NCBI GenBank assembly: GCA_965197745.1
Contig: CBDANS010000006.1
Span: 288,001-352,000 of the forward strand
DNA length: 64,000 nt
Reading direction: 5' to 3'
Source of the DNA: Opitutales bacterium
GTDB lineage: Bacteria; Verrucomicrobiota; Verrucomicrobiia; Opitutales; PNEW01
Part shown: positions 3,108-19,119 of the stretch, in pieces
Position numbering within the stretch: position 1 is the first letter of the stretch
Layout of the letters: each line of letters starts with the position of its first letter
Notes under the pieces: generated by a model
What the model saw: the letters and a program-made list of their open reading frames with translations, nothing else
What the model was told of the DNA's origin: nothing
The model's database searches: none
Program-made: the position numbers and the translations under genes

Positions 3108-4364
3108 TCAGCTTTTGCCATAATCTCTCACAAATTGTTCCAGAAGGCCCACAGCTGTTTTTCCGCCATCTTCCAGGGTAAGTTCACTTGCCAAATTTTC
3201 AGCATTTTTCCGAAGTCGTTGATCATTTTCAATCTCCGGGACAATTTTTGGGAGCAATTCCGGCCAGCGTCGCTTACTGATGCTGTGCCCCACTTCCAGA
3301 TGTCTGGTTTCCCTGGCCCAAAAAAATTGATCGGCAATATGGGGGATAACAATACCGGGCTTTCCGGAATGCCAAACGGAAGCCGTAGTTCCTGCGCCAC
3401 CATGATGAATGACACAAGATGCATGACGGAAAAGTTGGTCGTGCGATACCTGGTCAATAACCTTAATGTTAGAGTGCTCTTTCTCGGGTGAGAGATCTAC
3501 CCAGCCTCGCTGGATGATAATTTTTCTGTTATTCGGCCAATGGCGTAAAAATCGACGCATCTTATGCTCTCGACGATCGAAGGTAACACTTCCAAAAGTA
3601 AGGACGGGCACTTCGCGGCCTGCGCAAAATGCTTCGAGATCCTCATCTAATTGGGGGTTTTCACGCGACTGCCAACGCAGGTGACCGACATATTGAAATC
3701 GTGAATCAATTTCCGCATGCGCGGGAATCAGCTTTTTGCTCACTGCCACCAGAGCAAGGTCAGCCGGAGCAAAAATAAATTGTTTAACGGGTGTCGTTAT
3801 ACCTTTTTTAATACTGGCAGCGAGGGTTTTATTTACGGTTCTGTGTATCATCATATCTGTTATTTTCCACCAGGCATAATTCCATTTACGCTGCAGCCCC
3901 TTTGGCAGGGTTCTCATTGTGGGGACACCATTGGGCGGATAGTCCGGCGATGGCACTGTCATATGACCGAAACAGACTACGGCAAAGGGAATACCGTGAC
4001 GGTCCGCTCTCACCTTAAAATGGGGGAAGAGGTAAGAACAAACATAGAGGTCGGTATCCTCTAAAGCTTTTTCCAATCTGTCTAAAGTATCTTCGATATA
4101 AGGTATTCCACTGCGGTATATAATCTCTAATTGTTTCAACGAGTGTGGAGCACGTACCAGTTTTAGCATGCACGCGGCAAAGACTTCCTTCGTCCAGTCG
4201 GGAGGTATATAGATATAGTCCAGTCCCGCGCGTTTAACTTCATCTTTAAAAAGCGGGGCCGTCGCCAGTCGGACCGAATGCCCTGATTCAAGCAGGGCTT
4301 TGCCTAAGGCGATAACCGGATATATATCACCTGTCGAACCCTGTGAGTTGAGCAATACACGCAT
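3108..4364 (-). CDS. Glycosyltransferase family 1 (sterol glucosyltransferase/rhamnosyltransferase-like)
   Basis: GSTGDIYP N-terminal motif; HHGGAGTT and PHIADQFFW motifs. Confidence 0.88.
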   Translation of the reverse strand: MRVLLNSQGSTGDIYPVIALGKALLESGHSVRLATAPLFKDEVKRAGLDYIYIPPDWTKEVFAACMLKLVRAPHSLKQLEIIYRSGIPYIEDTLDRLEKALEDTDLYVCSYLFPHFKVRADRHGIPFAVVCFGHMTVPSPDYPPNGVPTMRTLPKGLQRKWNYAWWKITDMMIHRTVNKTLAASIKKGITTPVKQFIFAPADLALVAVSKKLIPAHAEIDSRFQYVGHLRWQSRENPQLDEDLEAFCAGREVPVLTFGSVTFDRREHKMRRFLRHWPNNRKIIIQRGWVDLSPEKEHSNIKVIDQVSHDQLFRHASCVIHHGGAGTTASVWHSGKPGIVIPHIADQFFWARETRHLEVGHSISKRRWPELLPKIVPEIENDQRLRKNAENLASELTLEDGGKTAVGLLEQFVRDYGKS

Positions 4365-4370
4365 CTTTCA

Positions 4371-4405
4371 ATTCTCGAATGTCGAATGTCGATTGTCGAT
4401 TGTGG
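4371..4405 (+). repeat. Heptamer tract (A[AT]TGTCG-like x5)
   Basis: attctcg aatgtcg aatgtcg attgtcg attgtgg. Confidence 0.8.
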
Positions 4406-4479
4406 AATGAGCAGAAATAGACAGAAGATTTACACATTGATAGAAAACGGTGTAATGAAAAAGTTTACAGGCATCACGC

Positions 4480-4542
4480 GGCCACGATCAGCCGTCGCCC
4501 CGCAGTGGCGGGGCTATGGCCGACAGGCTAGCGCGTGGCCCT
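4480..4542 (-). repeat. REP type B with a 42-nt hairpin inserted in its loop
   Basis: ggccacg-a-[tcagccgtcgccccgcagtggcggggctatggccgacaggct]-agcg-cgtggcc-ct; foot degenerate. Confidence 0.85.
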
Positions 4543-4558
4543 GTTCAATTTGAAGGAT

Positions 4559-4580
4559 GTCAGGCTTCGCCCTCGGTACC
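4559..4580 (+). repeat. 22-nt dispersed element GTCGGGCTTCGCCCTCGGTACC, copy 1
   Basis: One mismatch to the copy at 8306; five copies in the window. Confidence 0.8.
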
Positions 4581-4688
4581 GATTACCGATTGGCATTTTA
4601 ATCCGTCTTATCAGAGTAATCCGCGGTATTTTTTAAAAAATGATTTTTCAACTTGAAATTGCTGAGGACAGGGGTGAACTTTAGGAAC

Positions 4689-7600
4689 ATGCCCCACGCT
4701 GATAAGGAATTCGTCCATCTCCATCTTCACACTGATTACAGTCTTCTCGATGGCGCGTGCCGTATCGACCGGCTGATGGAACAAGCGACCAATCTGGGCA
4801 TGAAATCGCTCGCTATTACGGATCACGGAAATCTTTTCGGGCTTATCGACTTTTACCAGTCAGCGAACAAATTCGGGATAAAACCGCTCCTTGGTTGCGA
4901 AGTGTATCTGGTTACGGGCAGCCGACTTGAGCATCCGGAAAGGAACCTCCACCAATACTACCACATGGGTTTATTGGCTCGCAACTATACTGGTTACCAG
5001 AATCTTACAAAATTGGTCAGCGATGCTCATATCAATGGTTTCTACTACAAACCGAGGACCGACATGGAGCAACTGGCAGCGCACGCCGAAGGTCTTATAG
5101 GGTTTACCGGTTGTTTAAGGGGGGTTGTCCCCCAAGCCCTTCTCGCCGATCGCTATGAAGAAGCACGGGAGTGGGTTGGAAGGTTCATCGATATTTTTGG
5201 CAGAGAAAACTATATCGTTGAAATACAGGATCATCAAATCCCCGAGCAGAAGAAAATTATCCCTTCACTTCTAAAACTTGCTGAGGAATTTTCGCTGACT
5301 GTGGTCTGCACCAATGATGTCCATTATGTCAAACAGAGCGATTCCACCCCGCATGATGTACTGCTCTGCATCCAGACGGGGTCGAAAGTGGAAGATGAAA
5401 AGCGCATGCGTTTTTCCAATGAATTTTTTTACCTCAAGTCGGGTGAAGAAATGGCTCAGTTATTCAATGAACGTCCCGATTCACTCAAAAGCACACTGGC
5501 GGTTGCCGAAATGTGTGATGTTAAACTGCCCTTCGGTGAAAATCACTATCCGGTATTTAATATGCCCCCGGAAATCAAGACTCGATGCGATGACAACGCA
5601 ACTTACTTAAAAGAGCTTTGCATTAAAGGATTACAAAAACGATACGGTGTTGATTACCACCATCCGCAAAATTACAAACCCCATGCGAATGAAGATCCGC
5701 AACTGGCAATAACACTTGTTGAGCGTATCAACTATGAACTGGAGGTCATCAATAAAACGGGCTACATCGATTATTATCTGATTGTTCAGGACTTCATTAA
5801 TTGGGCCTTAAGCCAGGGTATCCCCGTGGGGCCGGGGCGCGGTTCTGGAGCGGGCAGCCTGGTTGCTTATCTCACGCATATAACCGATGTAGATCCTATT
5901 CGATTCAAGCTTCTTTTCGAACGCTTCCTTAATGAAGAGCGAATTTCGCCGCCTGACTTCGATATCGACTTTTGTATGCGAAGGCGCGGTGAAGTTATTG
6001 ACTATGTACGCGGTAAGTATGGCGAAGACAGCGTAGCGAATATTATCACTTTCGGCACTTTCGGAGCTAAGATGGTGGTGCGTGACGTTGCCCGTGTGCT
6101 TAGTATTCCTTACGGCGAAGCTGATCGAATCGCCAAGATGGTGCCGGATGATCTTAAAATTACCCTCGACGAGTCGCTAATGAAAAGCACGGAGCTCCGA
6201 GAGGAGGTAGAGAATAATGAACTGGCTGCGAAAATCATCGACCACGGCAAGATTATTGAAGGCATGGTTCGTAATACAGGCACCCACGCTGCCGGCGTAA
6301 TTATCGGAGACCGCCCTCTTACGGAATACATTCCCCTTACTATGCAGGAAGGAGCCCTCACAACCCAATACCCCCAGCTTCCCGTGGAAAATCTCGGATT
6401 GCTGAAAATGGACTTCCTCGGTCTTAAAACTTTAACCGTGATTGCCGACGCCGAGGACAACGTACGTCTCACCGCGGACAAGAACTTTGATATAAACACA
6501 ATCTCGTTTGATAATAAAAAAACATTTCAATTGATAGACGATGGGAAGACAACAGGCGTATTTCAGCTGGAATCCGGTGGAATGCGTAACCTTTGCCGCC
6601 AGTTTAAAATTGCCAGTATTGATGAGATCGTCGCGCTCATCTCACTTTATCGGCCGGGACCGATGGAGTGGATTCCCGATTACATCCGAGGCAAGCATGA
6701 CCCTTCGACGATAAAGTTTCCCCACCCTCTTTTGGAGGAAATATGTCATGAAACCTATGGCGTCATGGTTTATCAGGAACAGGTTATAGAGGCGGCTAAA
6801 GTCATTGCCGGTTTTACACCGGGAAGTGCTGATATTCTGCGCCATGCTATGGGCAAAAAAAATGTTAAAGAGATGAAAAAGCAACGGGAGGTTTTTATCG
6901 AAGGCGCTTTTAAAACCCATGGCATTGAAAGAAATGAAGCCATGGAAATATTTTCTATACTCGAAAAATTTGCCGGCTACGGGTTCAATAAATCACATTC
7001 ATCTGGTTACGCTGTCCTCAGTTATCGAACTGCTTACCTTAAGGCCAATTACCCCGTGCAGTTTATGGCCGCGGCACTTTCCAGTGAACTCGGCAACTCT
7101 GACAAAGTAGCCTACTTTATCGACGAATGCTCTTCCCTCAATATACCCGTGCTTGGACCGGACATAAACTTCTCACGCGAAAACTTTACCCCCGTATTCG
7201 ATGAAGAGACTGGTAAGAGCAGCATCCGTTTCGGGCTAGCCGCGATGAAAGGGGTGGGCGACGCCGCAGCCGCTACAATTATCGAGGAGAGAACAGCCCA
7301 TGGAGACTTTTCTGATTTTTATGAATTTGTTTCACGTTTTGATTCGCGTTCTGTCAACCGTCGCGTTCTGGAGTGCCTGATAAAGTCGGGCGCTTTTGAT
7401 TACTCGGGAGATGACCGTGGTCTCCTCTTTGCCAATATCGATAGTATTATGAACGAAATGGCTGCGCTTCAACGCGACCGCGAGCGTGGACAAGAGTCAT
7501 TTTTCGAATTGCTGGACGCGGATAACGAATCTCCGGGTCTCGGATCCAACGGACACCCTCGGCACAACGGCAATGGCCGGAATGGAAAAGAAAACATAAT

Positions 7601-8276
7601 GGCGCAAAACGATAAACTAAAATATGAAAAAGAATTGCTCGGTTTTTATGTTTCAGGCCACCCTATGAGTGACTATCAGGATCTCGATTTCGCCATCGAT
7701 ACAATCAAGGATGATAATCTTATCGATCTCGAAGACCGTTCCCTTTTTCGTCTCTGTGGCGTCGTCTCAAATGTGGCGAAGAAGATTTCCCGTAGAGACA
7801 ATCGTCCCTGGGCAATCTTAACCCTGGGGACAAGACATAGCACTTATACTATCAATGTATATGCTGAATCTTATGCCCAATACAGTGATTACCTTGAAGA
7901 TGGAAACCTTATCCTTATCACCGGAATCGTATTGAAGAGAGTTGACGACGTTCGCTTGAGTGCAGATGTCATTCATCCCCTCGATACCAGCATCCCCGAT
8001 ATCATAAAAAAAATCTGCTGGGTAATAAAACCCGAATCGGATGCGGATGACTTTCTCGATAAACTCCGAAAATTTATCGACGGCAATTATGGTGAAACAC
8101 AGACACAGATCGGTATCCTCGTAAGTGATAATAAAATTATCATCGCCGACACGGCTCCTTCATTAACCTGGAAAGTTCAACCCGATATTTTTAAAGCCCT
8201 TCGTCAACATCCCGCGATTGTCCGCGTCGACATTGAAGCGCTCCCCCCCTATTCAAATATCAATCATCCGTGGTGA
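4689..8276 (+). CDS. dnaE: DNA polymerase III alpha subunit
   Basis: PHP domain ([13 protein letters not shown]), [27 protein letters not shown] and an OB fold; start at ATG 4689. Confidence 0.97.
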
Positions 8277-8305
8277 TGCCATTGTCGATTGTCGATTGGG
8301 AGTGT

Positions 8306-8327
8306 GTCGGGCTTCGCCCTCGGTACC
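8306..8327 (+). repeat. 22-nt dispersed element, copy 2, following heptamers at 8281-8298
   Basis: gtcgggcttcgccctcggtacc. Confidence 0.8.
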
Positions 8328-8374
8328 GATTGGGGGAATAGGTACAAAATAAGCAAAATACGTAAACAATACGC

Positions 8375-8449
8375 GGACGCGACAACGCGCGTCCCTCCAA
8401 CATGGATCCTGAATCATTCCTGACCGGAGAGCCACGCGTCGTCGTGGCC
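8375..8449. repeat. REP doublet (type A reverse 8375-8398, type B forward 8426-8449) upstream of RAYT
   Basis: A = GGAG-GGACGCG-cgttgt-CGCGTCC; B consensus = GGAG-GGCCACG-cgtcgt-CGTGGCC. Both are 7-bp palindromes with a GGAG foot, separated by a 27-nt spacer. Confidence 0.92.
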
Positions 8450-8501
8450 GCGATGAATTAAAGATTTAATTCATGTAATAAATAAACCGTAAATTATATT
8501 T

Positions 8502-8987
8502 ATGGTTAATAAGGAATTCCCAACACGCAAGTCTCCTGCCCATTTATCGGTCATAGAATTTACTAATCGTTCCAATATTGTATTTGTTACTGTTTGCTCA
8601 CAGGACAGAAAGAATATCTTTGCTAACAAAGAGTCTTTTTTTCTTATGCAACAAGCTTGGGATGCAGCTAATTCCTGGAAAGTGGGTCGTTATATTATCT
8701 TACCAGACCATATTCACCTATTCTGTGCACCTTCCTCAGCTATCGTAGAACCATTGACTCAATGGATCAAATATTGGAAATCTTATGTTTCCTTTAGGTG
8801 GCCAAAGCCCGAAGACCAACCGATCTGGCAAAAAGGTTACTGGGATCGACAACTCCGGAATGCCGCGAGCTATGCAGCAAAGTGGTTGTATGTGCAGAAT
8901 AATCCAATGCGTCATGGGTTAGTTGGAAATTCCAAAAATTGGCAATATAAAGGAGAAATGAATATTTTTCGCTGGCATAATGCGTAA
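8502..8987 (+). mobile_element. REP-associated tyrosine transposase (RAYT/TnpA-REP, Y1 HUH family)
   Basis: FVTVC, PDHIHL (HUH), IWQKGYWDRQLR and YVQNNPMRHGLV...WQY motifs; flanked by REPs on both sides. Confidence 0.93.
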
Positions 8988-8994
8988 ACAATAC

Positions 8995-9260
8995 GGACGC
9001 GACAACGCGCGTCCCTCCGGGAAATGCAATGTAGTATAATCGTTAATACTGGTGAGGTATTTTCCGAAAGGAACCTTTTTGGTACGTAAACACAGACTTC
9101 AATCTTAAATCATTCTTGACCGGAGGGTCACGCGTCGTCGTGGCCGCTGCCGTTATAACCTATGAATATTTTCCGAAGGCGTGATGCGTGAACAATATGG
9201 ACGCGACAACGCGCGTCCCTCCAAGAATGATACAGGCAGGAGTGGCCGCGATGAATTAAA
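8995..9260. repeat. BIME-like REP array downstream of RAYT: A 8995-9018, B 9122-9145, A 9199-9222, partial B plus flank 9242-9260
   Basis: Direct reading of the palindromes; 9242-9260 (gtggccgcgatgaattaaa) is identical to 8444-8462. Confidence 0.9.
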
Positions 9261-9304
9261 ATTATTATGTGTCTCTTGTGCTTTTTGTTGCTATCTGAAA
9301 ATGG

Positions 9305-10840
9305 TTAAAGATTTTTCTCCACGACTTTGGTCAGCGACTTGAATTCATTTTTCAAGGCTGGGTATAAGGCGCGATAGCGGGGATAAAAATCGGAATATAT
9401 TGATTGATTGGAACCAGGTTGAAATTCACCCGTTACTTTTATTGTTTTTTCACAGGCTTCCTCTACTGAATTATAAACACCCGCACCCGCACCTGCTAAC
9501 AACGCCGCCCCGAAAGCCGCACCTTCAGTAGTGTTTACGGTTACCATCGGTGAACTGAAATTATCCGCTAACATCTGCAGCCACAGTCGACTTCTCGCTC
9601 CCCCCCCGGAGGCAACAACCTGGCTCGGACTTATCCCGAGCGCGCGCATCAGTTCCAGTCCGTCGCGGAGACCATAGGTCACCCCTTCGAGTACCGCGCG
9701 CGTCATATGATCTTTTGTGTGACGCAATGTGAGACCGATAAATGCACCCTTGGCATCGGGGTCGGGGTAAGGCATACGCTCGCCTGAAAGATAGGGTAAA
9801 AAAAACAATCCCTCGGAACCCGCCGGTATTTCAGATGCTTTTTCCGTTAAGGTGTCATAGGCATCGACCCCGGTCTCTTCTTCAAGCGTTCTCTCTTCAT
9901 TACCAAGTGTGTTGCGGTACCACTGAAAACTTCCCGCCGCGGAAAGCATCACCCCCATAAGATGCCACTTCCCAGGTACTGCATGGCAAAATGCATGCAA
10001 CCTACCATTGGGTTCTACAAGGTATTGATCGGAATGCGCAAAGATTACTCCAGATGTACCCAAGGTCGCCGAAACTACTCCTTCTTTTACAATACCACAC
10101 CCTATGGCTCCCGCTGCCTGGTCGCCACCACCGGCAATAATCGGTGTGCCCTCCATTAACCCGGTCAACTTTGCGGCCTCAGCACAGACCTTTGTCGAAG
10201 CAACGGGTGATTCCGTAACTTCAGGTACCCATTCCCGCGGCACTTCGCAACCGTCGAGCATCTCATCCGACCACTGACGCTTGGATACATCGAGCAGCGA
10301 CATGCCGGATGCATCGGATACATCGGTAAAAAAATCCCCGGACAGGCGGTAGCGTATATAATCCTTGGGTAAAAGCACCTTGGCTACACGGGAATAGACT
10401 TCGGGTTCATTTTCTTTAACCCATACAATTTTTGGCGCTGTAAAACCGGCGAGGACAGGATTACCGGTTAACTCCAGCACTTTTTCTGCACCGATTTTAT
10501 TGGTAATGGATTCACACTGCGACCCCGAGCGTTGATCATTCCACATGATGCAGGGACGAAGCACCTTTCCCTCTTTATCGAGAAGGACCAATCCATGCAT
10601 CTGGCCGGTAAGACCGAGGCCGGCAATGTTGGAGGCGCCTATATTTTGCCCTTCGATTAAACGCTTGATTGACTGAATTGTCGCCTGCCACCAGTCTTCG
10701 GGATCTGATTCCGCCCATAACGGTTTAGGGGTCTGAAAATCATACTCGGGGGCTACGGTGTTCACCACCTCCCCCGACTCATCAATAAGTACCGCTTTGG
10801 CACTCGATGTGCCCACGTCAATGCCGATTAAAAAAGCCAT
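9305..10840 (-). CDS. xylB: Xylulokinase
   Basis: FGGY kinase motifs GIDVGTSS, TGQMHG, WNDQR, GGGDQAAG, LPYLSGER and GGGARS. Confidence 0.93.
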   Translation of the reverse strand: MAFLIGIDVGTSSAKAVLIDESGEVVNTVAPEYDFQTPKPLWAESDPEDWWQATIQSIKRLIEGQNIGASNIAGLGLTGQMHGLVLLDKEGKVLRPCIMWNDQRSGSQCESITNKIGAEKVLELTGNPVLAGFTAPKIVWVKENEPEVYSRVAKVLLPKDYIRYRLSGDFFTDVSDASGMSLLDVSKRQWSDEMLDGCEVPREWVPEVTESPVASTKVCAEAAKLTGLMEGTPIIAGGGDQAAGAIGCGIVKEGVVSATLGTSGVIFAHSDQYLVEPNGRLHAFCHAVPGKWHLMGVMLSAAGSFQWYRNTLGNEERTLEEETGVDAYDTLTEKASEIPAGSEGLFFLPYLSGERMPYPDPDAKGAFIGLTLRHTKDHMTRAVLEGVTYGLRDGLELMRALGISPSQVVASGGGARSRLWLQMLADNFSSPMVTVNTTEGAAFGAALLAGAGAGVYNSVEEACEKTIKVTGEFQPGSNQSIYSDFYPRYRALYPALKNEFKSLTKVVEKNL

Positions 10841-10846
10841 ACTTCA

Positions 10847-10897
10847 ATTGTCGATTGGGATATAGGATAGCCACAAGAAGCACAAAAAACACAAGAG
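10847..10897 (+). repeat. Heptamer plus GATAG plus nonamer (CACAARARR-like x3) composite repeat
   Basis: attgtcgattgg...gatag ccacaagaa gcacaaaaa acacaagag; related copies at 9271-9295, 11109-11143, 2108-2132 and 17458-17501. Confidence 0.6.
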
Positions 10898-10991
10898 AAA
10901 TCGTTATAAAGTGATTAAGATAGGGGGTGCGGATTGATTATCAGTACGCTTCTTAACCCCTGTGATTTTGAAAATATTAATGCTTTATAGC

Positions 10992-11056
10992 GGCCACGAT
11001 CAGCCGTCGCCCCGCAGTGGCGGGGCTATGGCCGACAGGCTAACGCACATCCCTCC
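10992..11056 (-). repeat. Chimeric REP (B arm, 42-nt hairpin insert, degenerate A arm and foot)
   Basis: ggccacga-[same insert as 4488-4529]-aacgcacatccctcc. Confidence 0.82.
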
Positions 11057-11179
11057 AGACATAGATTCACACTCACGCCAACTTTCCTCATAAAATCTCT
11101 TTTCTTTATCTTGTGCTTTTAATTGCTATCTCTTCAATCGACAAATCATCACTTATGCTCTAAAAAGATATGTATTAAT

Positions 11180-12673
11180 ATGAAAATAAAATTTAGTGGG
11201 AGCATCGCGCTCATTCTCTTGGCTTCGGTTATAAATCTTTCCGGAGAAAACGGTCCATCGGTTGGGATGATTATCCAGAGATCACAACAGTTGCTCATGA
11301 ACGGACAGCACGCCCAGGCAACTGAGCTGCTCACCAGTGAGATCGCCATGAGGTCAGGCCCCGGTGCCGATGCCCAGGCACAGTCAGAAAATATGCAGCT
11401 GAGGGGGCTACTGGGAGACATCTATATGGAGCTATACCAAAGCGAAAAGGCGGTAGAACAGTATGATGAAATTATCAAACTCAACCCGAATTTCGCATTT
11501 CCCTATTTTATGAAAGGTAAAGCACTGGCGACGATGCAGGGACGAACTTTAGAAGCCCTCGAGACCTATCAAATCAGTGAAAGGCTCGGGTACGCGGAGT
11601 CGGAGCTCTATTCAGGTATCGGATGGTGTTTTATGATGTTAACTGAAGAGGGCAATCTGGATGAAGCGCAATATAAGCAGTATGTCAGTCACGCGATCAG
11701 TTATTTTAAAGCAGCTATATCCAAAGATCCTGAAAACCTTTCCGCATTGGGAAATTTAGCAGATTTACAGTTCAACATTGGAAACTATGAGGGGGCGATC
11801 AAGAACTATGAAAGACTTACTAAAAATACCCCGGGGAAAGCTCCCATTCTCATTCGTATGGGAGACGCCTATATAAAGGTGGGTAAAATACCGGAAGCTA
11901 TTGAAATCCTGATAAAAGCCCAAGCTGCACTACCGAAGATCAGTGAACTTCACAATAATTTAGATAAAAGTGTGGTCATAGATTCCATGATACGCATTCA
12001 GCTGTATCTCGGCCAGGCGCTGACCTTAAAGAAGCGATTTCGGGAAGCGAAAAGAGCATTCGAGACCGTAATTGTTCTTACTGAAAGAACGGAATTAAGT
12101 ATGGCGCCCAGTGAGAAAAAGATGTTCCAGGAAAAGGCGCAAAAAGCGATCGACTTCTTCACATCTGAACCCGGATTTCAGACCTTTACGAGTAAGGGGC
12201 ACGAGAAAGCTGGAGAATTGGATTTTTCCCTCGATTACCCGAATGGTTGGTTTGCCAAGGAATCGAAAAAAACAAGCACTCTGAAAGTATTTTGGGAATA
12301 TCCTTCTTCCTATTGTGATAGCATCTCCATTGTCATACCGCCCGGACAGAATCTTGATAAACCTGATATCTCCCATGAGCGATTTTTAACCCTTTTTGAG
12401 AGTCCACGACTTTCTGGCGTTCCTTCTGGAACAATTTCTGTTCAGAAAAAATTATTAGAAGATTATAAGTACCCCGCTGGATTTGTGGATTATTTCAGGC
12501 CTTCATCGAGTAAAAAAGATGCCGGTCAGTACTCGGTCAGAAAATATATTATTTATCTCGGCAACCAGATGGTATGGGTGGTCTTTAGTTTTTATCCTGA
12601 AGAAGACATCGACAAATTTAAAGATTCGGGGCCTTGGATGGAAACGATCATCGACAGCCTGGTTCAATTGTAG
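11180..12673 (+). CDS. Secreted tetratricopeptide-repeat protein with an unknown C-terminal domain
   Basis: Signal peptide MKIKFSGSIALILLAS; several TPR-like repeats (e.g. DPENLSALGNLADLQFNIGNYEGAIKNYERL). Confidence 0.8.
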   Translation: MKIKFSGSIALILLASVINLSGENGPSVGMIIQRSQQLLMNGQHAQATELLTSEIAMRSGPGADAQAQSENMQLRGLLGDIYMELYQSEKAVEQYDEIIKLNPNFAFPYFMKGKALATMQGRTLEALETYQISERLGYAESELYSGIGWCFMMLTEEGNLDEAQYKQYVSHAISYFKAAISKDPENLSALGNLADLQFNIGNYEGAIKNYERLTKNTPGKAPILIRMGDAYIKVGKIPEAIEILIKAQAALPKISELHNNLDKSVVIDSMIRIQLYLGQALTLKKRFREAKRAFETVIVLTERTELSMAPSEKKMFQEKAQKAIDFFTSEPGFQTFTSKGHEKAGELDFSLDYPNGWFAKESKKTSTLKVFWEYPSSYCDSISIVIPPGQNLDKPDISHERFLTLFESPRLSGVPSGTISVQKKLLEDYKYPAGFVDYFRPSSSKKDAGQYSVRKYIIYLGNQMVWVVFSFYPEEDIDKFKDSGPWMETIIDSLVQL

Positions 12674-12687
12674 ATGTTCTTGGTAAC

Positions 12688-12839
12688 GGCCACGACGACG
12701 CGTGGCCCTCCAGATAGGAATGATTAAGGATCCATGTTGGAGGGACGCGCGTTGTCGCGTCCGTATTGTTTACGCATTATGCCATCGGAATATATTCATA
12801 AATTATAGCGGCAGCGGCCACGACGACGCGTGGCCCTCC
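12688..12839. repeat. BIME-like REP array: B 12688-12711, A 12739-12762, B 12816-12839
   Basis: Perfect palindromes; spacers are homologous to 8399-8425 and to the RAYT 3' end. Confidence 0.92.
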
Positions 12840-12848
12840 ATCCTATAC

Positions 12849-12876
12849 CAATCGGCAATCGACAATCGACAATCGA
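12849..12876 (-). repeat. Heptamer tract (CGACAAT orientation)
   Basis: caat cggcaat cgacaat cgacaat cga. Confidence 0.8.
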
Positions 12877-12877
12877 T

Positions 12878-15800
12878 TCACTCTTCCTTTTCCGGAGTCG
12901 GGATAGAGGGGATACTCCCGGGAGTAACTTTTTCAGAAACGTCTTCACCTGAGCGGTTGCGTATTTTCTGCGTGAAGTCGCTGAAAAGGGTATAGACTAC
13001 GGGCACGATAAGGAGAGTGAAAATGGTGCTGGTAATGAGCCCGCCGATGGCGACCACCCCGAGGGGTCGACGGCTTTCAGCCCCGGCGCCAAATCCGATA
13101 GCAATCGGAAGTATACCGGCTATCGTTGAAAAGGTGGTCATCAAGATCGGGCGCAGGCGAATTTTGCCGGAAATTTTAATCGCTTCCATCGCGCTCTTTC
13201 CCTTCGCTATCTGCTGGTTGGCAAATTCAATGAGAAGGATGGAGTTCTTCGTGGCCAGAGCAATGAGGAGGACAAACCCGATCTGACTGAAAAGGTTGAT
13301 ATTCATGGCGGGGATACGCGGAATGATTGCTGCCATTACTTTGGCAAATGTCGGGGGATCGGGCGCGTAGTTGGCCCAACCGTAGAACATTTCACCAAGA
13401 AAGTTTACCCAGCTAAGAAGATAAAGCGCCCCAAAGGCACCGAGGGCAGCTAAGGGCACGGCGACGATGACCGTTAGTGGGTGAACAAGACTTTCAAACT
13501 GTGAGGCTAGAACCATGAAAACGACGATAAGGGCAATTAACATTACCCAATAGATATCTTTTGTCGTTTCTTTCATGTTTTTCGCATCACCAGCCCAAGA
13601 GTATCGGAAACCGGCGGGCATAGTTTCATCAACCACATCCAAAGCCCTTTCAATGGCGGTACCAAGAGGTATCCCTACAGGTGAGCCCTCAACCGTCGCG
13701 GAGCGGCTTCGATTGTAATGATAAATAGTATTTGGACCGCCACCTGGTTTGAGTGTAACCACATTGCTCAATTGAATAAGCTGTCCTTCCGTATTACGTA
13801 TGTAAAGCCGCTCCACGTCGGAAGGAGTAAGGCGTGACTCGCGATCGAGCTGGACAATGACGTCGTATTCCTTACCCCCTCGCTGCACCTGGCTGAGATC
13901 CTGACCGCCGAAAAGTATCTGAAGTGTGCGTGAAAGATCCATTATGGACACCCCCAGGGCTCCTACCCTATTGCGATCAATATGTATGCGTAACTCAGGC
14001 TTATCGAGCTGAAACTGGGTGCGAACATTGCCGAGAAACCCTTCCTCGCGCAACCTGTTCGCCAACACCTTGGAATAATCATTGAGCGCATTAAGGTCAT
14101 CGTGTTGCAAGACAAGTTGAAATGATTGTCCCCAGCCACCGCTGATAGCTTTCGGCAAGATCGGTATGGAAATAGCCCCTTCCACTTCATTAAAAAAACG
14201 CGCCCCAATACCATTAGGAGCTCCCACAATATCCTGCACCGAGAGGTCGCGCTCTTTACGGTCTTTGAAGCGGACAAACATTAAACCCTGTGACGCCTTG
14301 CCCGGCCCACCCCGACCGAGAGCGACGGCGGAAAAGAATCCCCCCACCCCGGGTGTTTCATGCATGATAACTTCCATCTGCCGCACCATGCGGTCGGTGT
14401 ATTCGCTGGTCGCACCCTCAGGGGCAATGGCCAGACAGAAGAGTCTCCCCTTATCTTCTTCAGGCAGAAAGTCTTTTTCCAATTGCATGTATGTTAAGAT
14501 GCTTAGCGCTACGATAATCAGGCTCCCAATTACGACTGCTGGTCGATGCCTGAGCACCAGTGAAAGGATGCGCTCATAGTTAGTCGTAGTCTTTTCCATC
14601 CATCGCTCGAAGAGATTAAATAAGGCGCCGTGTTTTTCCCGGTTAACGGGTTTGAGCACGCGCGCTGAAATCATCGGAGTTAAAGTAAGAGCGACGAATG
14701 AGGAAATGATGACTGAACCCGAGAGCGCTATGGCAAATTCAATGAAGAGGCGTCCGGTCAGGCTGGTCTGCAGCGCCATAGGAAGAAATACGGCTGCCAG
14801 TGATAAGGTAGTTGCGATCACCGCAAAAACGATTTCCTTCATACCCTCGATTGCAGCCTGCATGGGCTTTTGCCCTTCTTCTATGTGTCGATATATATTT
14901 TCAAGGACAACAATAGAGTCGTCGACGACAACCCCGATGGTTAAAACCATCGCCATCATCGTCACAATATTAATTGAGAATCCCATGAAGTAGAGGACGG
15001 CGAAGCAGCCCATCACCGCTACGGGAATGGCGACACTGGGAATAAAAGTGGAACGTACGTTCCGCAGGAATATAAAGATGGTTATGACAACGAGAATAAA
15101 AGCGATGAAGAGGGTTCTCCAAACCTCCTCAATCGCTTTCTCCACATAGATGCTTTCGTCATAAGCAATAAAAAATTCCACACCTTCTGGAAGCCAGGGT
15201 TTGAGTCGCTCCAGCTCTGTTTTAATCCCGCTGGCCACTTCGACCGTATTTGCCTTTGACTGTTTCACGACTCCAAGGCCAACCGCAGGTTTGGAGTTGT
15301 AGCGTGCGACAGAGCGCTCGTCTTCTACACCCACTTCTGCATAGCCGATGTCCTGCAGACGAATGAGGTTGTCACGATCTTCACGGATGATGAGACGGTT
15401 AAATTCATCCACTGTTCTCAATTCTCCCAAGGTCTGGATAGCCAACTCACGCTCACGGTTTTCAACACGCCCGCTCGGCAATTCCAGGTTCTGTCGTCTA
15501 AGCGCGTTCTCGACATCCAGGACCGTAATCCCATGAGCGGTCATTTTATCTGAGTCGAGCCAGAATCGAATAGCAAAGCGTTTTTCTCCACCGAGGATGA
15601 CATTGCTGACACCACGAACGGTTTGCAGGGGATCCTTGAGGATTTCTTCACCAATATCGGAAAGTTCCAGTGTGGAGTAGCGCTCTCCAAATAGCGCAAT
15701 CCATAAAAACGGCCGGGCGTCACCATCCTGCTTTGCGACGATGGGTTCATTAATTTCTTCAGGAAGGTCTTCACGCGCGCGCGCGACCCGGTCGCGAACA

Positions 15801-16120
15801 TCCTGAGCGGCAAGGTCTATATCACGCGCGAGGACAAACTGCACAGTAATATTGCTCACCTGTTCCCGACTTTCACTGGTCAGGGTTTTGATGCCTTCGG
15901 TGGTATTGATTACCTCTTCCAGTTTTTCCGTAATCTCAGTTTCCACCACCTCCGCGCTTGCTCCGGGATACACGGTATTGACATTGACTATCGGTGGATC
16001 GATATCGGGCAGTTCCCGCACCGGCAATCGACTGATCGCGATAAGACCAAAAAGAATGAGCCCAAGATTCATCATCGAGGCGAGCACCGGTCGCTTGATG
16101 CAGATTTCAGGTAATTTCAT
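12878..16120 (-). CDS. RND efflux permease, AcrB/AcrD/AcrF family
   Basis: RPV start, GVVVDDSIVVLENI, KNSILLIEF and RLRPILMT motifs; 1080 aa. Confidence 0.95.
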   Translation of the reverse strand: MKLPEICIKRPVLASMMNLGLILFGLIAISRLPVRELPDIDPPIVNVNTVYPGASAEVVETEITEKLEEVINTTEGIKTLTSESREQVSNITVQFVLARDIDLAAQDVRDRVARAREDLPEEINEPIVAKQDGDARPFLWIALFGERYSTLELSDIGEEILKDPLQTVRGVSNVILGGEKRFAIRFWLDSDKMTAHGITVLDVENALRRQNLELPSGRVENRERELAIQTLGELRTVDEFNRLIIREDRDNLIRLQDIGYAEVGVEDERSVARYNSKPAVGLGVVKQSKANTVEVASGIKTELERLKPWLPEGVEFFIAYDESIYVEKAIEEVWRTLFIAFILVVITIFIFLRNVRSTFIPSVAIPVAVMGCFAVLYFMGFSINIVTMMAMVLTIGVVVDDSIVVLENIYRHIEEGQKPMQAAIEGMKEIVFAVIATTLSLAAVFLPMALQTSLTGRLFIEFAIALSGSVIISSFVALTLTPMISARVLKPVNREKHGALFNLFERWMEKTTTNYERILSLVLRHRPAVVIGSLIIVALSILTYMQLEKDFLPEEDKGRLFCLAIAPEGATSEYTDRMVRQMEVIMHETPGVGGFFSAVALGRGGPGKASQGLMFVRFKDRKERDLSVQDIVGAPNGIGARFFNEVEGAISIPILPKAISGGWGQSFQLVLQHDDLNALNDYSKVLANRLREEGFLGNVRTQFQLDKPELRIHIDRNRVGALGVSIMDLSRTLQILFGGQDLSQVQRGGKEYDVIVQLDRESRLTPSDVERLYIRNTEGQLIQLSNVVTLKPGGGPNTIYHYNRSRSATVEGSPVGIPLGTAIERALDVVDETMPAGFRYSWAGDAKNMKETTKDIYWVMLIALIVVFMVLASQFESLVHPLTVIVAVPLAALGAFGALYLLSWVNFLGEMFYGWANYAPDPPTFAKVMAAIIPRIPAMNINLFSQIGFVLLIALATKNSILLIEFANQQIAKGKSAMEAIKISGKIRLRPILMTTFSTIAGILPIAIGFGAGAESRRPLGVVAIGGLITSTIFTLLIVPVVYTLFSDFTQKIRNRSGEDVSEKVTPGSIPSIPTPEKEE

Positions 16121-16148
16121 GGACTTGCTGATTGGTGATTTGAATGAT

Positions 16149-16170
16149 GTCGGGCCTCGCCCTCGGTAAC
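16149..16170 (+). repeat. 22-nt dispersed element, copy 3
   Basis: gtcgggcctcgccctcggtaac. Confidence 0.75.
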
Positions 16171-16213
16171 GATAGTCTCTAGCGCTTCTCGATAACTTAT
16201 CTTCCCCTACTCC

Positions 16214-16247
16214 AGATTGCCACGTCGCGATGATCCTCGCAATGAGA
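16214..16247 (-). repeat. GTCATTGCGAG...GCAATC palindromic repeat family member
   Basis: agattgccacgtcgcgatgatcctcgcaatgaga; similar to 33435-33477 and to the reverse complement of 18777-18804. Confidence 0.65.
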
Positions 16248-16288
16248 AAGGAATAAATCGTATTTCAATCGAGAATCGCCGGCTCTTC

Positions 16289-17389
16289 TCATCCGGTGTC
16301 AAGATTAGACGAAAATTCAGGTTGCCCGGCCTCTACGGATAAAGGATTCACTAATGAACCGGGGCCTACTTTTTGATGTCCTTCGATAATCACTCGCTCA
16401 TCCACCCGCAATCCACCAGTGATTTCAACTTCACCATCAAGTCGCAAGCCGGTAGTTACATAATTTTCCTGCACGGTATTATCGCCATTCACCACCATGA
16501 CCTGCGTTTTATTACCCTGCGTAATCAAGGCTGACTCAGGAATTACGAGCGCCTCGTCTTTAACTTGCAAAACAAGTTCAAGATTACCAAACATGCCCGG
16601 CTTTAGACGTCCACTTTCGTTTTCGATAGTGGCACGGACAAAGATGGTACGCGTATCTTCATCTACTTCGGGAGCTATAAAATAAACAGTTCCGGAATAC
16701 TTTTCTTCGGAGTAAGCGGCTACCGTGATAAAAATCTCCTGATCAATGTGCAGTTCATTGAGGAAACGTTCCGGCACGCGAAAATCTGCCTTGATGGGGT
16801 TAGAGTCGACAAGGGTCGTGATAGTCTCACCTTGCGGGATAAACTGACCCGGACTCACGCGCCTGTAGCCTACTACCCCGTTAAAGGGCGCTCGCAAGAT
16901 ACTGTCCTCCAGTTGACGACGGCGAAGTTCGAGCAATGCGTTTAAAGCTGAAAACCTGGATATAGCCTGATCAAATTCCTGTTGTGAAACGGTGTTACTC
17001 TGGAGAAGACTGAGGTAGCGTTCACGATTAATTTTAGCGAGTTCAAAATTAGCTTCTGCTTCAGACACCCGAGCACGTAGCTTTTCTGTATCTAATTCAA
17101 AAATAAGATCACCCGCTTCAACTTTATCCCCTTCTTTAAAATGAATGTTTGTTACCACACCGCTGATTAAATTTTTAATTTCCACCCGCTCATTAGGCGC
17201 CAGCGTAGCGACAAGATTAATTTTATCAGAAACAGGTTTCAACTCCGGCTCTATCACGATTACGCTGACCGCGAATGCCGGGGGTTGATCTTCATCCTTA
17301 TTACCCCCACAACCAGACAAAAACACTAAAACCCCCATTGAGTATAGCGTCACAAATAGCCACTTGTGCGATGATATAAGAAATTTCAT
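16289..17389 (-). CDS. RND efflux periplasmic adaptor (membrane fusion protein), lipoprotein
   Basis: Lipobox LSGC; lipoyl and hairpin motifs (EGDKVEAGD, LRAPFNG, LKPGMF). Confidence 0.92.
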   Translation of the reverse strand: MKFLISSHKWLFVTLYSMGVLVFLSGCGGNKDEDQPPAFAVSVIVIEPELKPVSDKINLVATLAPNERVEIKNLISGVVTNIHFKEGDKVEAGDLIFELDTEKLRARVSEAEANFELAKINRERYLSLLQSNTVSQQEFDQAISRFSALNALLELRRRQLEDSILRAPFNGVVGYRRVSPGQFIPQGETITTLVDSNPIKADFRVPERFLNELHIDQEIFITVAAYSEEKYSGTVYFIAPEVDEDTRTIFVRATIENESGRLKPGMFGNLELVLQVKDEALVIPESALITQGNKTQVMVVNGDNTVQENYVTTGLRLDGEVEITGGLRVDERVIIEGHQKVGPGSLVNPLSVEAGQPEFSSNLDTG

Positions 17390-17589
17390 GATATTGTATT
17401 TAATGACGCTATAAATTGATCTTCGTTCCGAATGCGATATTCATTTGTCTATTTTCCAATGTCGATTGAAAAGATCGCCGCACATGCACAAGAGTCACAA
17501 ATATATGTAATTAAATTATTTAATAATATGAAGGGATAGATTAGTGATATTGCCCATCAAATCTGATAAACACCCATTAATCTAATACC

Positions 17590-17725
17590 GGAGTGCCACG
17601 CGCTGGCCTGTCGGCCATAGCCCCGCCACTGCGGGGCGACGGCTGATCGTGGCCGCTATTTAGAATGAATATTTTCCACTGGCATGATGCGTAAATAATA
17701 CGGACGCGACAACGCGCGTCCCTCC
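17590..17725. repeat. REP B with hairpin insert (17590-17654), RAYT-derived spacer, REP A (17702-17725)
   Basis: ggag-tgccacg-cgct-[insert, reverse complement]-t-cgtggcc ... ggacgcgacaacgcgcgtccctcc. Confidence 0.9.
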
Positions 17726-17850
17726 AATTATTTTCAGGTCAGGAGTCCAGGAACCCTTAAGGAAATGCTTTATAAGCGTATTCTATGTTTTACTTTCTTG
17801 AAAAAGCTTGTTCGTTAAGCCCTCAAGTTTAACAATTGGTGTGTCCTAAA

Positions 17851-18702
17851 ATGCAAAGCGCAATAAACAGTAATACCAGTGAGACGGTTTCCGACTGGAA
17901 CCTTTTTGGCGCTCTGGGCAGATTATATCGCTACCGCGAAATTTTACGTCAGTTAGTCATGCGCAACATAAAGTCAAGACACCAGGGAAGTTATCTGGGC
18001 AGTCTCTGGCAATTATTAAACCCCCTGCTAATGATGTCTCTCTACACCTTTGTCTTTGGATATATATTCAGGGGCACTTATCACTCTTCCCCTCAAGAAA
18101 CTACGCTCGAATACGGGCTAGGCATTTTTTTGAGCATTACCATTTATCAGTTCCTTGCAGAAATTCTCATGGTCTCACCAGGACTCTTGATCAATCATCC
18201 TAATTATGTAAAAAAAGTTGTCTTTCCCCTGGATGTATTACCGGTAGCCATTGTCGGGACAGCACTATACTATTTTCTTCTCACCCTCATCCTTGTCCTA
18301 TTGGGCATTATATTCTTAGGCCCCGGCTTGAGCCCCAATGCGCTTTGGATGCCCGTCATCCTTCTCCCTTTTTTTCTCACCGCGCTTGGCCTGGCATGGA
18401 TCTTTTCCGCAGTCGGGGTGTTCTTTCGCGATATCAATCAGCTGACAAATTTTCTCAGTCTCGCCCTCCTTTACTCGAGTGCGGTATTTTACTCATCGAA
18501 ACAAATACCCGAACCCATCTGGCAATTCCTGAAATTCAATCCGCTCATCCATACTGTTGAGTTATCCCGACAAGTCTTACTCTGGGGACAGAGTCCGGAA
18601 ATACAACCCCTCGCCTATCTTTACGGGTTCAGCATTATCTTCGTCTGGTTAGGTTATGTTGCCTTTAACAAAATGAAACCCGCTTTTGCCGATGTCATAT
18701 GA
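17851..18702 (+). CDS. wzm: ABC-2 polysaccharide exporter permease
   Basis: RHQGSYLGSLW, VKKVVFP, FFRD, NPL and terminal FADVI motifs. Confidence 0.92.
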   Translation: MQSAINSNTSETVSDWNLFGALGRLYRYREILRQLVMRNIKSRHQGSYLGSLWQLLNPLLMMSLYTFVFGYIFRGTYHSSPQETTLEYGLGIFLSITIYQFLAEILMVSPGLLINHPNYVKKVVFPLDVLPVAIVGTALYYFLLTLILVLLGIIFLGPGLSPNALWMPVILLPFFLTALGLAWIFSAVGVFFRDINQLTNFLSLALLYSSAVFYSSKQIPEPIWQFLKFNPLIHTVELSRQVLLWGQSPEIQPLAYLYGFSIIFVWLGYVAFNKMKPAFADVI

Positions 18703-18730
18703 ACAATTTTCGAATGTTGATTTGAAAGAC

Positions 18731-18752
18731 GTCGGGCTTCACCCTCGGTACC
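18731..18752 (+). repeat. 22-nt dispersed element, copy 4
   Basis: gtcgggcttcaccctcggtacc. Confidence 0.78.
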
Positions 18753-18776
18753 GATTGCCGAATTCGGATTTATATT

Positions 18777-18804
18777 GTCATTGCGAGCGGAGCGCGGCAA
18801 TCCA
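18777..18804 (+). repeat. GTCATTGCGAG...GCAATC palindromic repeat family member
   Basis: gtcattgcgagcggagcgcggcaatcca. Confidence 0.7.
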
Positions 18805-19119
18805 GGGGTAAGCCAGTAAACCGTTCATCCTTTCCTACTGAACAATACTCAGGATATGGCTACTAAACCTGCAAGGTAAAATCACGCCATCAATATTTAA
18901 GGATATAATTTAGACATCCCATGGATCACCGCAGTCGACTATGCCTCCTTCCCGATGTAAAAAAAGCAATAATAGTTGCACCTTTACAAGGCGTTAACGT
19001 TATATACGGAATTGCGGATTGATTGAATAGTCACATAAATTATTCGATTAAAAGTTTTTATCGTCACCGGCATTGGGGTACGATACGGTCACTTTAAATA
19101 TTTAAATTCCATTTAATTC

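Follow-up and report, generated by a model that had tools for sequence, protein, structure and literature searches.

We analysed a 64,000-nt stretch of DNA from an Opitutales bacterium (G000:C6:288001-352000, the window), which carries RAYT1, a gene for a REP-associated tyrosine transposase (RAYT) flanked by two repetitive extragenic palindromes (REPs). Three nearby REP doublets, units 9, 12 and 17, carry the last nine codons and the stop codon of a RAYT gene between their hairpins. These doublets are probably internally deleted copies of the RAYT cassette, and in unit 12 the deleted form was probably copied to a new site. An earlier note on this DNA (the original prediction) quoted sequences and coordinates for the RAYT locus and the tail copies that are all correct. 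Its description of the arrays as dispersed needs narrowing: the copies are real, but all lie within 9.4 kb of the gene, so that their spread is local only. The cassette and its derivatives comprise the following parts, in window positions.

8353-8398, plus strand: remnant c0, the last 21-22 nt of the tail and linker (19/21 identical to 8975-8993) and a perfect REP-A at 8375-8398
8399-8425, plus strand: A-to-B linker of 27 nt (right-end/left-end junction), with a second copy at 12712-12738 on the minus strand
8426-8449, plus strand: REP-B, hairpin of the left end with GGAG as its 5' foot, one mismatch to the consensus, -6.4 kcal/mol as single-stranded DNA
8450-8501, plus strand: left-end inner flank (LE), with ATGAAT 3 nt past REP-B, unique in the genome save for 17 nt at 9242-9258
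8502-8987, plus strand: RAYT1 open reading frame (ORF), 161 aa, without internal stop
8958-8994, plus strand: the tail, which is the recurring segment: last nine codons and stop (MNIFRWHNA*) and a 7-nt linker
8995-9018, plus strand: REP-A, hairpin of the right end with CTCC as its 3' foot, exact, -8.1 kcal/mol, 0/200 shuffles as stable
9122-9222, plus strand: unit 9, REP-B, a 53-nt spacer (14-nt filler, tail 9162-9191, linker) and REP-A
9239-9261, plus strand: remnant c3, a core-deleted REP-B and the first 11 nt of a RAYT1-type LE, 17/17 identical to 8444-8460
12688-12839, minus strand: unit 12 array, REP-B 12839-12816, a 53-nt spacer, REP-A 12762-12739, the 27-nt linker and REP-B 12711-12688
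17590-17725, plus strand: unit 17, a long REP-B 17590-17654, a 47-nt spacer, tail 17665-17694 and REP-A 17702-17725

RAYT1 and the copies of its 3' end

RAYT1 matches the NCBIfam model for REP-associated tyrosine transposases (NF047646) over residues 22-149 with 83.6 bits at a cut-off of 80, and a profile of the RAYT1 clade aligns with the structure of E. coli TnpA-REP (PDB 4er8) over positions 28-150 (E = 1.6e-13). The HUH motif (H70-I71-H72) and the catalytic Y130 lie in columns that are invariant or at least 90% conserved among 70 homologues. The gene falls below the thresholds for IS200 (18.9 against 23 for Pfam Y1_Tnp, 17.3 against 55 for NCBIfam IS200), and the genome holds no second near-identical copy, which sets RAYT1 apart from IS200/IS605 insertion sequences (ISs). 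Judged by these features, RAYT1 is predicted to be an intact Y1 HUH REP-associated tyrosine enzyme. REP-B ends 52 nt upstream of the gene and REP-A starts 7 nt past its stop codon; the two are diverged inverted versions of each other, and both types are also found elsewhere in the genome. Between REP-B and the start codon of RAYT1 stands a near-perfect AT-rich palindrome (8453-8474, 20/22 nt paired), perhaps an operator or promoter of the cassette, which is missing from the deleted units.

The RAYT1 3' end together with REP-A was used as a blastn-short query against the whole 4.45-Mb genome. Only the three units and the c0 remnant gave matches that reach into the tail, those of the units being 61 nt at 95% (E = 1e-21), 62 nt at 94% (9e-20) and 61 nt at 89% (5e-12); all remaining matches cover the REP-A hairpin only. 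A scan that scored the 45 nt on the inner side of each of 209 REPs against the 37-nt tail picked out five, with scores of 37, 31, 29, 24 and 16 (RAYT1 and its four copies), all others scoring 12 or less and the shuffled maximum being 9. The tail and linker directly precede REP-A at 9162-9198, 12799-12763 (minus strand) and 17665-17701. One copy keeps the 7-nt linker unchanged, and the other two each deviate from it at a single position; in every unit a REP-B stands 47-53 nt left of REP-A. Translated, the tail reads MNIFRWHNA* in unit 12 (12799-12770, minus strand), MNIFHWHDA* in unit 17 and MNIFRRRDA* in unit 9, where it has decayed (W158R, H159R, stop TGA). Scored against the cassette, the spacers of units 9, 12 and 17 reach 24, 31 and 30, each matched by 0/100 shuffles. 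The c0 remnant gives a blastn match of 38 nt at 94.7% (8361-8398) and a tail score of 16 against the shuffled maximum of 9; an extra 'gc' at 8372-8373 is lacking in one strain of the public data.

A search for homologues returned 101 proteins at E 1e-10 or better, of which 70 were aligned, mostly short fragments being left out. Their consensus ends in DWPYQGELNxLxWHD, and most of the proteins stop at WHD or one residue later. The tail residues are widely kept (W158 in 66/70, L or F156 in 68/70, N154 and H159 in 49/70 each, D160 in 47/70), in homologues down to 42% identity, and a 31%-identical homologue from another family of the order ends in GEVFPLIWY. A metagenome scan for close relatives yielded one homologue only, at 31% identity. 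The paralogue RAYT2 (C7:1451958-1451476) is 66% identical to RAYT1 over all 161 aa including the tail (LYVFRWHDS*), despite an unrelated downstream sequence, and 45 nt separate its stop codon from its REP, which has a different loop. Between the two paralogues dN is 0.23 and dS is saturated (NG86), hence no ratio is given.

Since the tail is conserved across homologues, it is ancestral coding sequence, and the spacers derive from the gene and not the gene from a spacer. In the opposite scenario a RAYT ORF ran into a pre-existing doublet spacer, the spacer being older and the gene tail secondary. The NCBIfam model and the E. coli structure, which align only to residue 149/150, could be read that way, but the tail is kept in 70 homologues, has a counterpart in the 31%-identical protein and persists in RAYT2 next to unrelated 3' sequence. 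We consider ORF extension to have almost no chance of being correct, and tail conservation rules it out. The original prediction had itself derived the spacers from RAYT codons and had named homologues ending before MNIFRWHNA as the observation that would overturn this; the 70 homologues do not end there, and the derivation stands on their tails, on that of RAYT2 and on the synteny of unit 17 described below.

Anatomy of the probable deletion and decay of the fossils

In all three units the right-hand match to the cassette begins at 8957/8958, with the ATG codon for Met153. The left block consists of REP-B and 'gc', homology ending 2 nt past REP-B, and the right blocks through REP-A are identical at 58/62, 57/61 and 57/66 positions. 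The units therefore have the structure of a MITE (a miniature transposable element with inverted repeats), with both ends in common with the parent and the interior missing. Units 9 and 12 have the same tandem GCCGCT duplication and the same 14-nt filler, and so descend from one deleted cassette. REP-B is followed by GCT in all three units, as at the left end of the sister-genus genome G001; RAYT1 has GCG. The hexamer ATGAAT occurs both in LE, 3 nt past REP-B, and at the start of the fossil. These repeats suggest microhomology, although a plain deletion between them would leave no filler.

The tails of RAYT1 and unit 12 differ by three changes, all synonymous (P ~0.003 under uniform substitution). 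The ttc, CAC (His) and GAT (Asp) codons of the copies are the states found in sister-genus genes, and polarisation with G001, G002 and RAYT2 makes ttc ancestral, so that ttt and probably att arose on the RAYT1 branch. That branch is under selection and synonymous changes are expected there; a separate donor gene is therefore not needed. We rejected a second donor gene deduced from the synonymous-only divergence on the ground that two of the three differences fall on the still-selected RAYT1 branch. The original prediction had offered another or an ancestral RAYT allele as donor, and of these the ancestral allele is retained. Its expected synonymous bias likewise holds between RAYT1 and unit 12 (3/3) and not across copies, where third positions make up 3/8 of the variable tail sites, no excess and as expected for decaying fossils. 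Unit 9 has lost the near-invariant Trp158. The tail fossils thus appear to be under neutral decay.

The hairpins behave differently. Compared with the gene, the three fossils of 37 nt show 3, 4 and 6 differences, while REP-A (8375, 8995, 9199, 12739 on the minus strand, and 17702) is 24/24 identical at all five sites. At the fossil rate, zero changes in 96 REP-A hairpin nt have a Poisson P of ~1e-5 by our own arithmetic. Because the hairpins are identical while the fossils decay, the REP-A hairpins are constrained or homogenised and the fossils not. REP-B occurs at 8426, 9122, 12816 and 12688 (both minus strand) and, as a long form, at 17590-17654, where its loop is replaced by a nested element of ~47 nt. 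On folding, unit 12 forms one long hairpin and unit 9 two separate ones, with z-scores of only -1.5 to -2.0.

The RAYT1 locus reads c0, 27-nt linker, full cassette, 103 nt, unit 9 and c3. This order suggests a decayed head-to-tail array in which c0 and c3 are truncated cassettes flanking the surviving gene. The two copies of the 27-nt linker are identical at 23/27 nt (blastn gives a 23-nt match at 95.7%), and a sequence resembling it lies 5' of REP-B at 9099-9121 (20-nt match, 0/300 shuffles). Between the RAYT1 REP-A and unit 9, a possible degenerate spacer copy without hairpins of its own (9041-9068, filler and tail start) scores 12.5, a value reached by 1.3% of 300 shuffles.

Synteny with a sister genus and the origin of the units

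G001 and G002, from a sister genus, have a RAYT ortholog with 81-82% nucleotide identity, compared with 69-79% for neighbouring genes. Stop codons break it, making it a pseudogene; it lies between genes for an efflux membrane fusion protein (MFP) and an ABC-2 protein and is flanked by REP-B and a degenerate REP-A. The same MFP/ABC-2 intergenic site holds unit 17 in the window, with conserved sequence anchors on both sides, and the fossil of unit 17 carries the His157 and Asp160 of the sister-genus genes, not the Arg and Asn of RAYT1. As it stands at an orthologous RAYT site, unit 17 is most simply read as an in-place internal-deletion relic of a RAYT copy. The unit 12 array is located between convergent genes for a tetratricopeptide repeat (TPR) protein and an AcrB-type protein, a junction that measures 13 nt in G001, ~21 nt in G002 and 196 nt here. 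Given the short junctions of the sister genus, the array appears to be an insertion into an otherwise conserved gene junction. The tail has a single occurrence in each of G001 and G002, where it is part of the gene, and G003 (82% complete) has none.

RAYT1 itself has dnaE on one side and a xylulokinase gene on the other. Its position is a shared breakpoint of two inversions relative to G001 and G002, and for this reason no 'empty site' is definable there. The inverted blocks are 3128-8328 (gene X and dnaE) and 9292-10840 (xylulokinase gene), each inverted in place; the breakpoints are 3081/3128, 8328/9292 and 10840/11180, the RAYT1 array sits at the common one, and a long-form REP (10994-11056) lies near the third. 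G002 (L022) shows two further features: a deletion between two AGGA(A/T)TTA repeats has removed the REP-B hairpin in front of its RAYT pseudogene, and downstream of dnaE (L022 17860-18180) come a degenerate REP and then a stretch resembling the 27-nt linker.

Independent public assemblies from four sequencing runs, as contigs only, contain units 9, 12 and 17 (contig 8989-10288, 12631-13051 and 17575-17725, respectively) with no letter changed. A G002-like organism that co-occurs in some of the runs explains a joint from 8982 to 17782 and variant letters at 8524-8562, and the other joints in these contigs sit on REP repeats.

We regard it as probable that the tail-bearing doublets are internally deleted RAYT cassette copies and that unit 12 is a deleted form copied to a new site. 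The parent cassette would have consisted of left flank and REP-B, LE, RAYT, 7 nt, and REP-A with the right flank; the deletion would have removed nearly all of LE and codons 1-152, leaving the last nine codons. Unit 17 would be the remnant at the site where the orthologous RAYT persists as the sister-genus pseudogene, and units 9 and 12 would come from one deleted cassette, unit 12 having been copied into a new intergenic site. We infer mobilisation by RAYT: the enzyme would have worked in trans on single-stranded DNA through the two hairpins, a mechanism that has been proposed for REPINs (paired inverted REPs), and the A-27 nt-B module would in that case represent the joint of a right end with a left end.

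Several observations weigh against this reading. There are only three full copies and remnants, all tail copies lie within 9.4 kb of one another, and the one demonstrable insertion event is that of unit 12, a single event seen across genera through the empty site in G001 and G002. No target-site signature was seen, and same-strain-type public contigs revealed neither excision nor presence/absence polymorphism. Either RAYT site may be the ancestral one. The 7-14 nt between 'GTGGCCGC(T)' and ATGAAT fit no cassette part, so that the deletion was not a simple one with two breakpoints; this filler, short and AT-rich, may be the last LE bases before the start codon, that is, an in-frame ATG-to-ATG fusion. 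The form of the junction (GCTAT, 5 nt, ATGAAT) unites units 9, 12 and 17, whereas Arg157 (CGN) unites RAYT1 with units 9 and 12, a conflict which implies either that the deletion recurred at one place or that short-patch conversion took place between copies.

Two other accounts of the units were weighed. If a full cassette once stood at each site and the interiors were lost independently at a deletion hotspot, for example from the ATGAAT just past REP-B to the one at codons 153-154, the deleted form would never have moved. Unit 17, best read as an in-place relic, fits such recurrent decay, as do the ATGAAT motifs 3 nt into LE and at the fossil start and the difference between Arg157 in units 9 and 12 and His157 in unit 17, which could reflect independent deletions of different alleles; in addition, the genome G161, also from the order, contains a pair of RAYT genes at a distance of 7.5 kb, one of which is interrupted by a stop. 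The GCCGCT duplication and filler common to units 9 and 12 nevertheless place their common ancestry after the deletion, an ATGAAT-to-ATGAAT deletion predicts no filler where 7-14 nt are present, and full cassettes must still have been copied to three sites. We judge recurrent decay in place improbable. Short-patch gene conversion, in which the RAYT1 3' end overwrote the right part of the spacer in ordinary nearby REP doublets with REP-A as anchor, would explain why every copy is local, why the hairpins are identical next to variable sequence and why states are distributed as a mosaic (att in RAYT1 and units 9 and 17, aat in RAYT1 and unit 12, cga in units 9 and 12). It does not explain the sharp left boundary at 8957/8958 common to three copies, where no homology lies to the left that could end a tract, the position of unit 17 at an orthologous RAYT site with the sister-genus allele in place of RAYT1's, or the lack of the whole unit 12 array in the sister genus, and we hold it to be very improbable.

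A bolder version of the deletion-and-copying model would make the RAYT cassette an autonomous IS200-like local hopper, now or until recently: the gene would have moved by ~9 kb between the sister genera and left a relic behind, and the surviving enzyme would have copied the deleted form. The RAYT1 locus and the unit 12 insertion are each longer than one unit and have the same right-end/left-end junction, which would point to a circular or rolling-circle HUH intermediate. We think this version unlikely; if true, it would mean that the birth of a REPIN has been caught in progress.

Generality and relation to known systems

The REP search of the genome gave 282 raw matches, 209 after removal of duplicates, against 3 in a reversed-genome control. 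These sequences have the properties of REPs, being short, GC-rich imperfect palindromes with a conserved foot and many extragenic copies, and 28 foot-outward inverted doublets are formed. The original prediction saw in 'the BIME unit' (bacterial interspersed mosaic element) at large a deletion derivative of the cassette, which goes too far: among doublets with a spacer of 130 nt or less, 3/26 have RAYT-like spacers and the other 23 are unrelated, so the tail-bearing doublet does not appear to be the genome's general REP doublet. A fourth candidate spacer (C6:728376; score 16, 0/100 shuffles, similar to the RAYT1 5' end) was rejected as a chance match due to the unrelated GGTGGA/TCCACC repeat described below. 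Deletion derivatives of RAYT2 were rejected as well, both of its end flanks being unique in the genome.

The survey took in 30 RAYT loci with 1.5 kb on either side, drawn from 201 genomes of the order. At the 29 other loci the repeats on the flanks overlap the ORF by no more than 11 nt, stop codon counted, which leaves this genome as the exception. Among 40 matches in the whole genome of G143, none begins further than 8 nt ahead of the ORF end. The two RAYT copies of G161, from another family, lie at C21:41670-42134 and C21:49230-49694, one of them with an internal stop, and may be a parallel case of a cassette that was duplicated locally and decayed.

REPs of E. coli carry a GTAG foot, and in IS608 the end hairpins are in direct orientation, whereas REP-A and REP-B are inverted. 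With its GGAG foot and its host in the Verrucomicrobiota (Opitutales), the present system differs from the REPIN-RAYT systems of Pseudomonas and enterobacteria. It also differs from E. coli TnpA-REP: nothing in the alignment to 4er8 corresponds to the conserved GELNxLxWHD tail at the C-terminus. Bertels and Rainey 2011 (PMC3116915, PMC3337134) deal with the Pseudomonas and enterobacterial systems. In the available text of these papers and of bioRxiv 10.1101/2021.07.10.451892, the hypothesis is that REPINs go back to the REPs on either side of an IS200-like ancestor ('simple duplication', 'fused'), RAYTs are described as single-copy and non-jumping, and REPIN-RAYT systems as rarely evolved. Measured against those descriptions, the likenesses are a Y1 HUH RAYT between inverted GC-rich hairpins with a conserved foot, repeats throughout the genome as singlets and inverted doublets (here 209 REPs and 28 doublets), and a REP flavour particular to each RAYT paralogue, the loops being CGTCGT or CGTTGT with RAYT1 and CTCCGT with RAYT2. 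The differences, on the same partial basis, are that some doublets here keep RAYT codons and that the RAYT is not positionally stable, the ortholog standing at a different intergenic site in the sister genus; the genome also has two RAYT paralogues and not a single copy. As in E. coli BIMEs, where the consulted part of PMC2817692 describes REPs alternating in orientation with conserved linkers, the REPs here alternate in orientation and have conserved linkers.

The original prediction's comparison with MITEs is apt for structure: the units keep both ends, have lost the transposase, are short and non-coding, and at least one copy stands at a new site. It is less apt for mobility and number. MITEs come in many dispersed copies; here three copies and remnants lie within 9.4 kb, unit 17 is probably no transposition product, unit 12 alone is a demonstrable insertion, and the parent is a RAYT and not a multi-copy IS. 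The PATEs of haloarchaea are reportedly an IS200/IS605-derived example of the MITE type. The concept of internal deletion of the MITE type is drawn in the Figure 3 legend of bioRxiv 10.1101/2021.07.10.451892, and as far as that legend goes the present case seems to match the MITE-forming step, as a variant of the REPIN/RAYT theme with a clear origin and on a small scale. Outside subscription journals and supplements, the literature searches brought up no RAYT coding remnants reported for REP doublets or BIME linkers, and the word 'deletion' does not occur in Nunvar et al. 2010.

The origin of REPs and REPINs is a stated open question, and here an intermediate is visible in the form of fossil-bearing doublets, a relic at the gene site and one copy at a new site. 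The doublets carry a datable fossil of the enzyme's own conserved C-terminus, and the contrast between kept hairpins and decaying fossils indicates which parts are constrained. REP-B, REP-A, B-spacer-A and the A-27 nt-B junction form a concrete substrate set for RAYT biochemistry, and the REPIN/RAYT system is extended to the Verrucomicrobiota. With three copies, and with nothing comparable at 29 other RAYT loci of the order, this is a clear example and not a general rule.

Some further repeats accompany the REPs. Long-form REPs carry, in place of the 6-nt loop, a nested hairpin element of ~40-47 nt, for which blastn-short finds 26 matches genome-wide, 18 of them at least 38 nt long. An Rfam scan of 7000-19000 gave no match at E up to 1. 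The long-form loops in the window are these.

17598-17645: long-form REP loop
4489-4536, minus strand: long-form REP loop
11001-11040, minus strand: long-form REP loop

A second abundant palindromic repeat family, with feet GGTGGA...TCCACC, often adjoins the GGAG-footed REPs; a fuzzy search gave 73 matches, some of them spurious (examples are C6:728422, C6:116512 and C7:1271737). Short tandem TGTCGAT(T/A)-type motifs stand at gene ends (4380-4402, 8282-8299, 12849-12876 and 17460-17468) and at corresponding places in G001 and G002. A motif of ~25 nt (…ggcttcgccctcggtaccgatt) flanks dnaE on both sides, at 4560-4584 and 8305-8331, and is conserved downstream of dnaE in G001.

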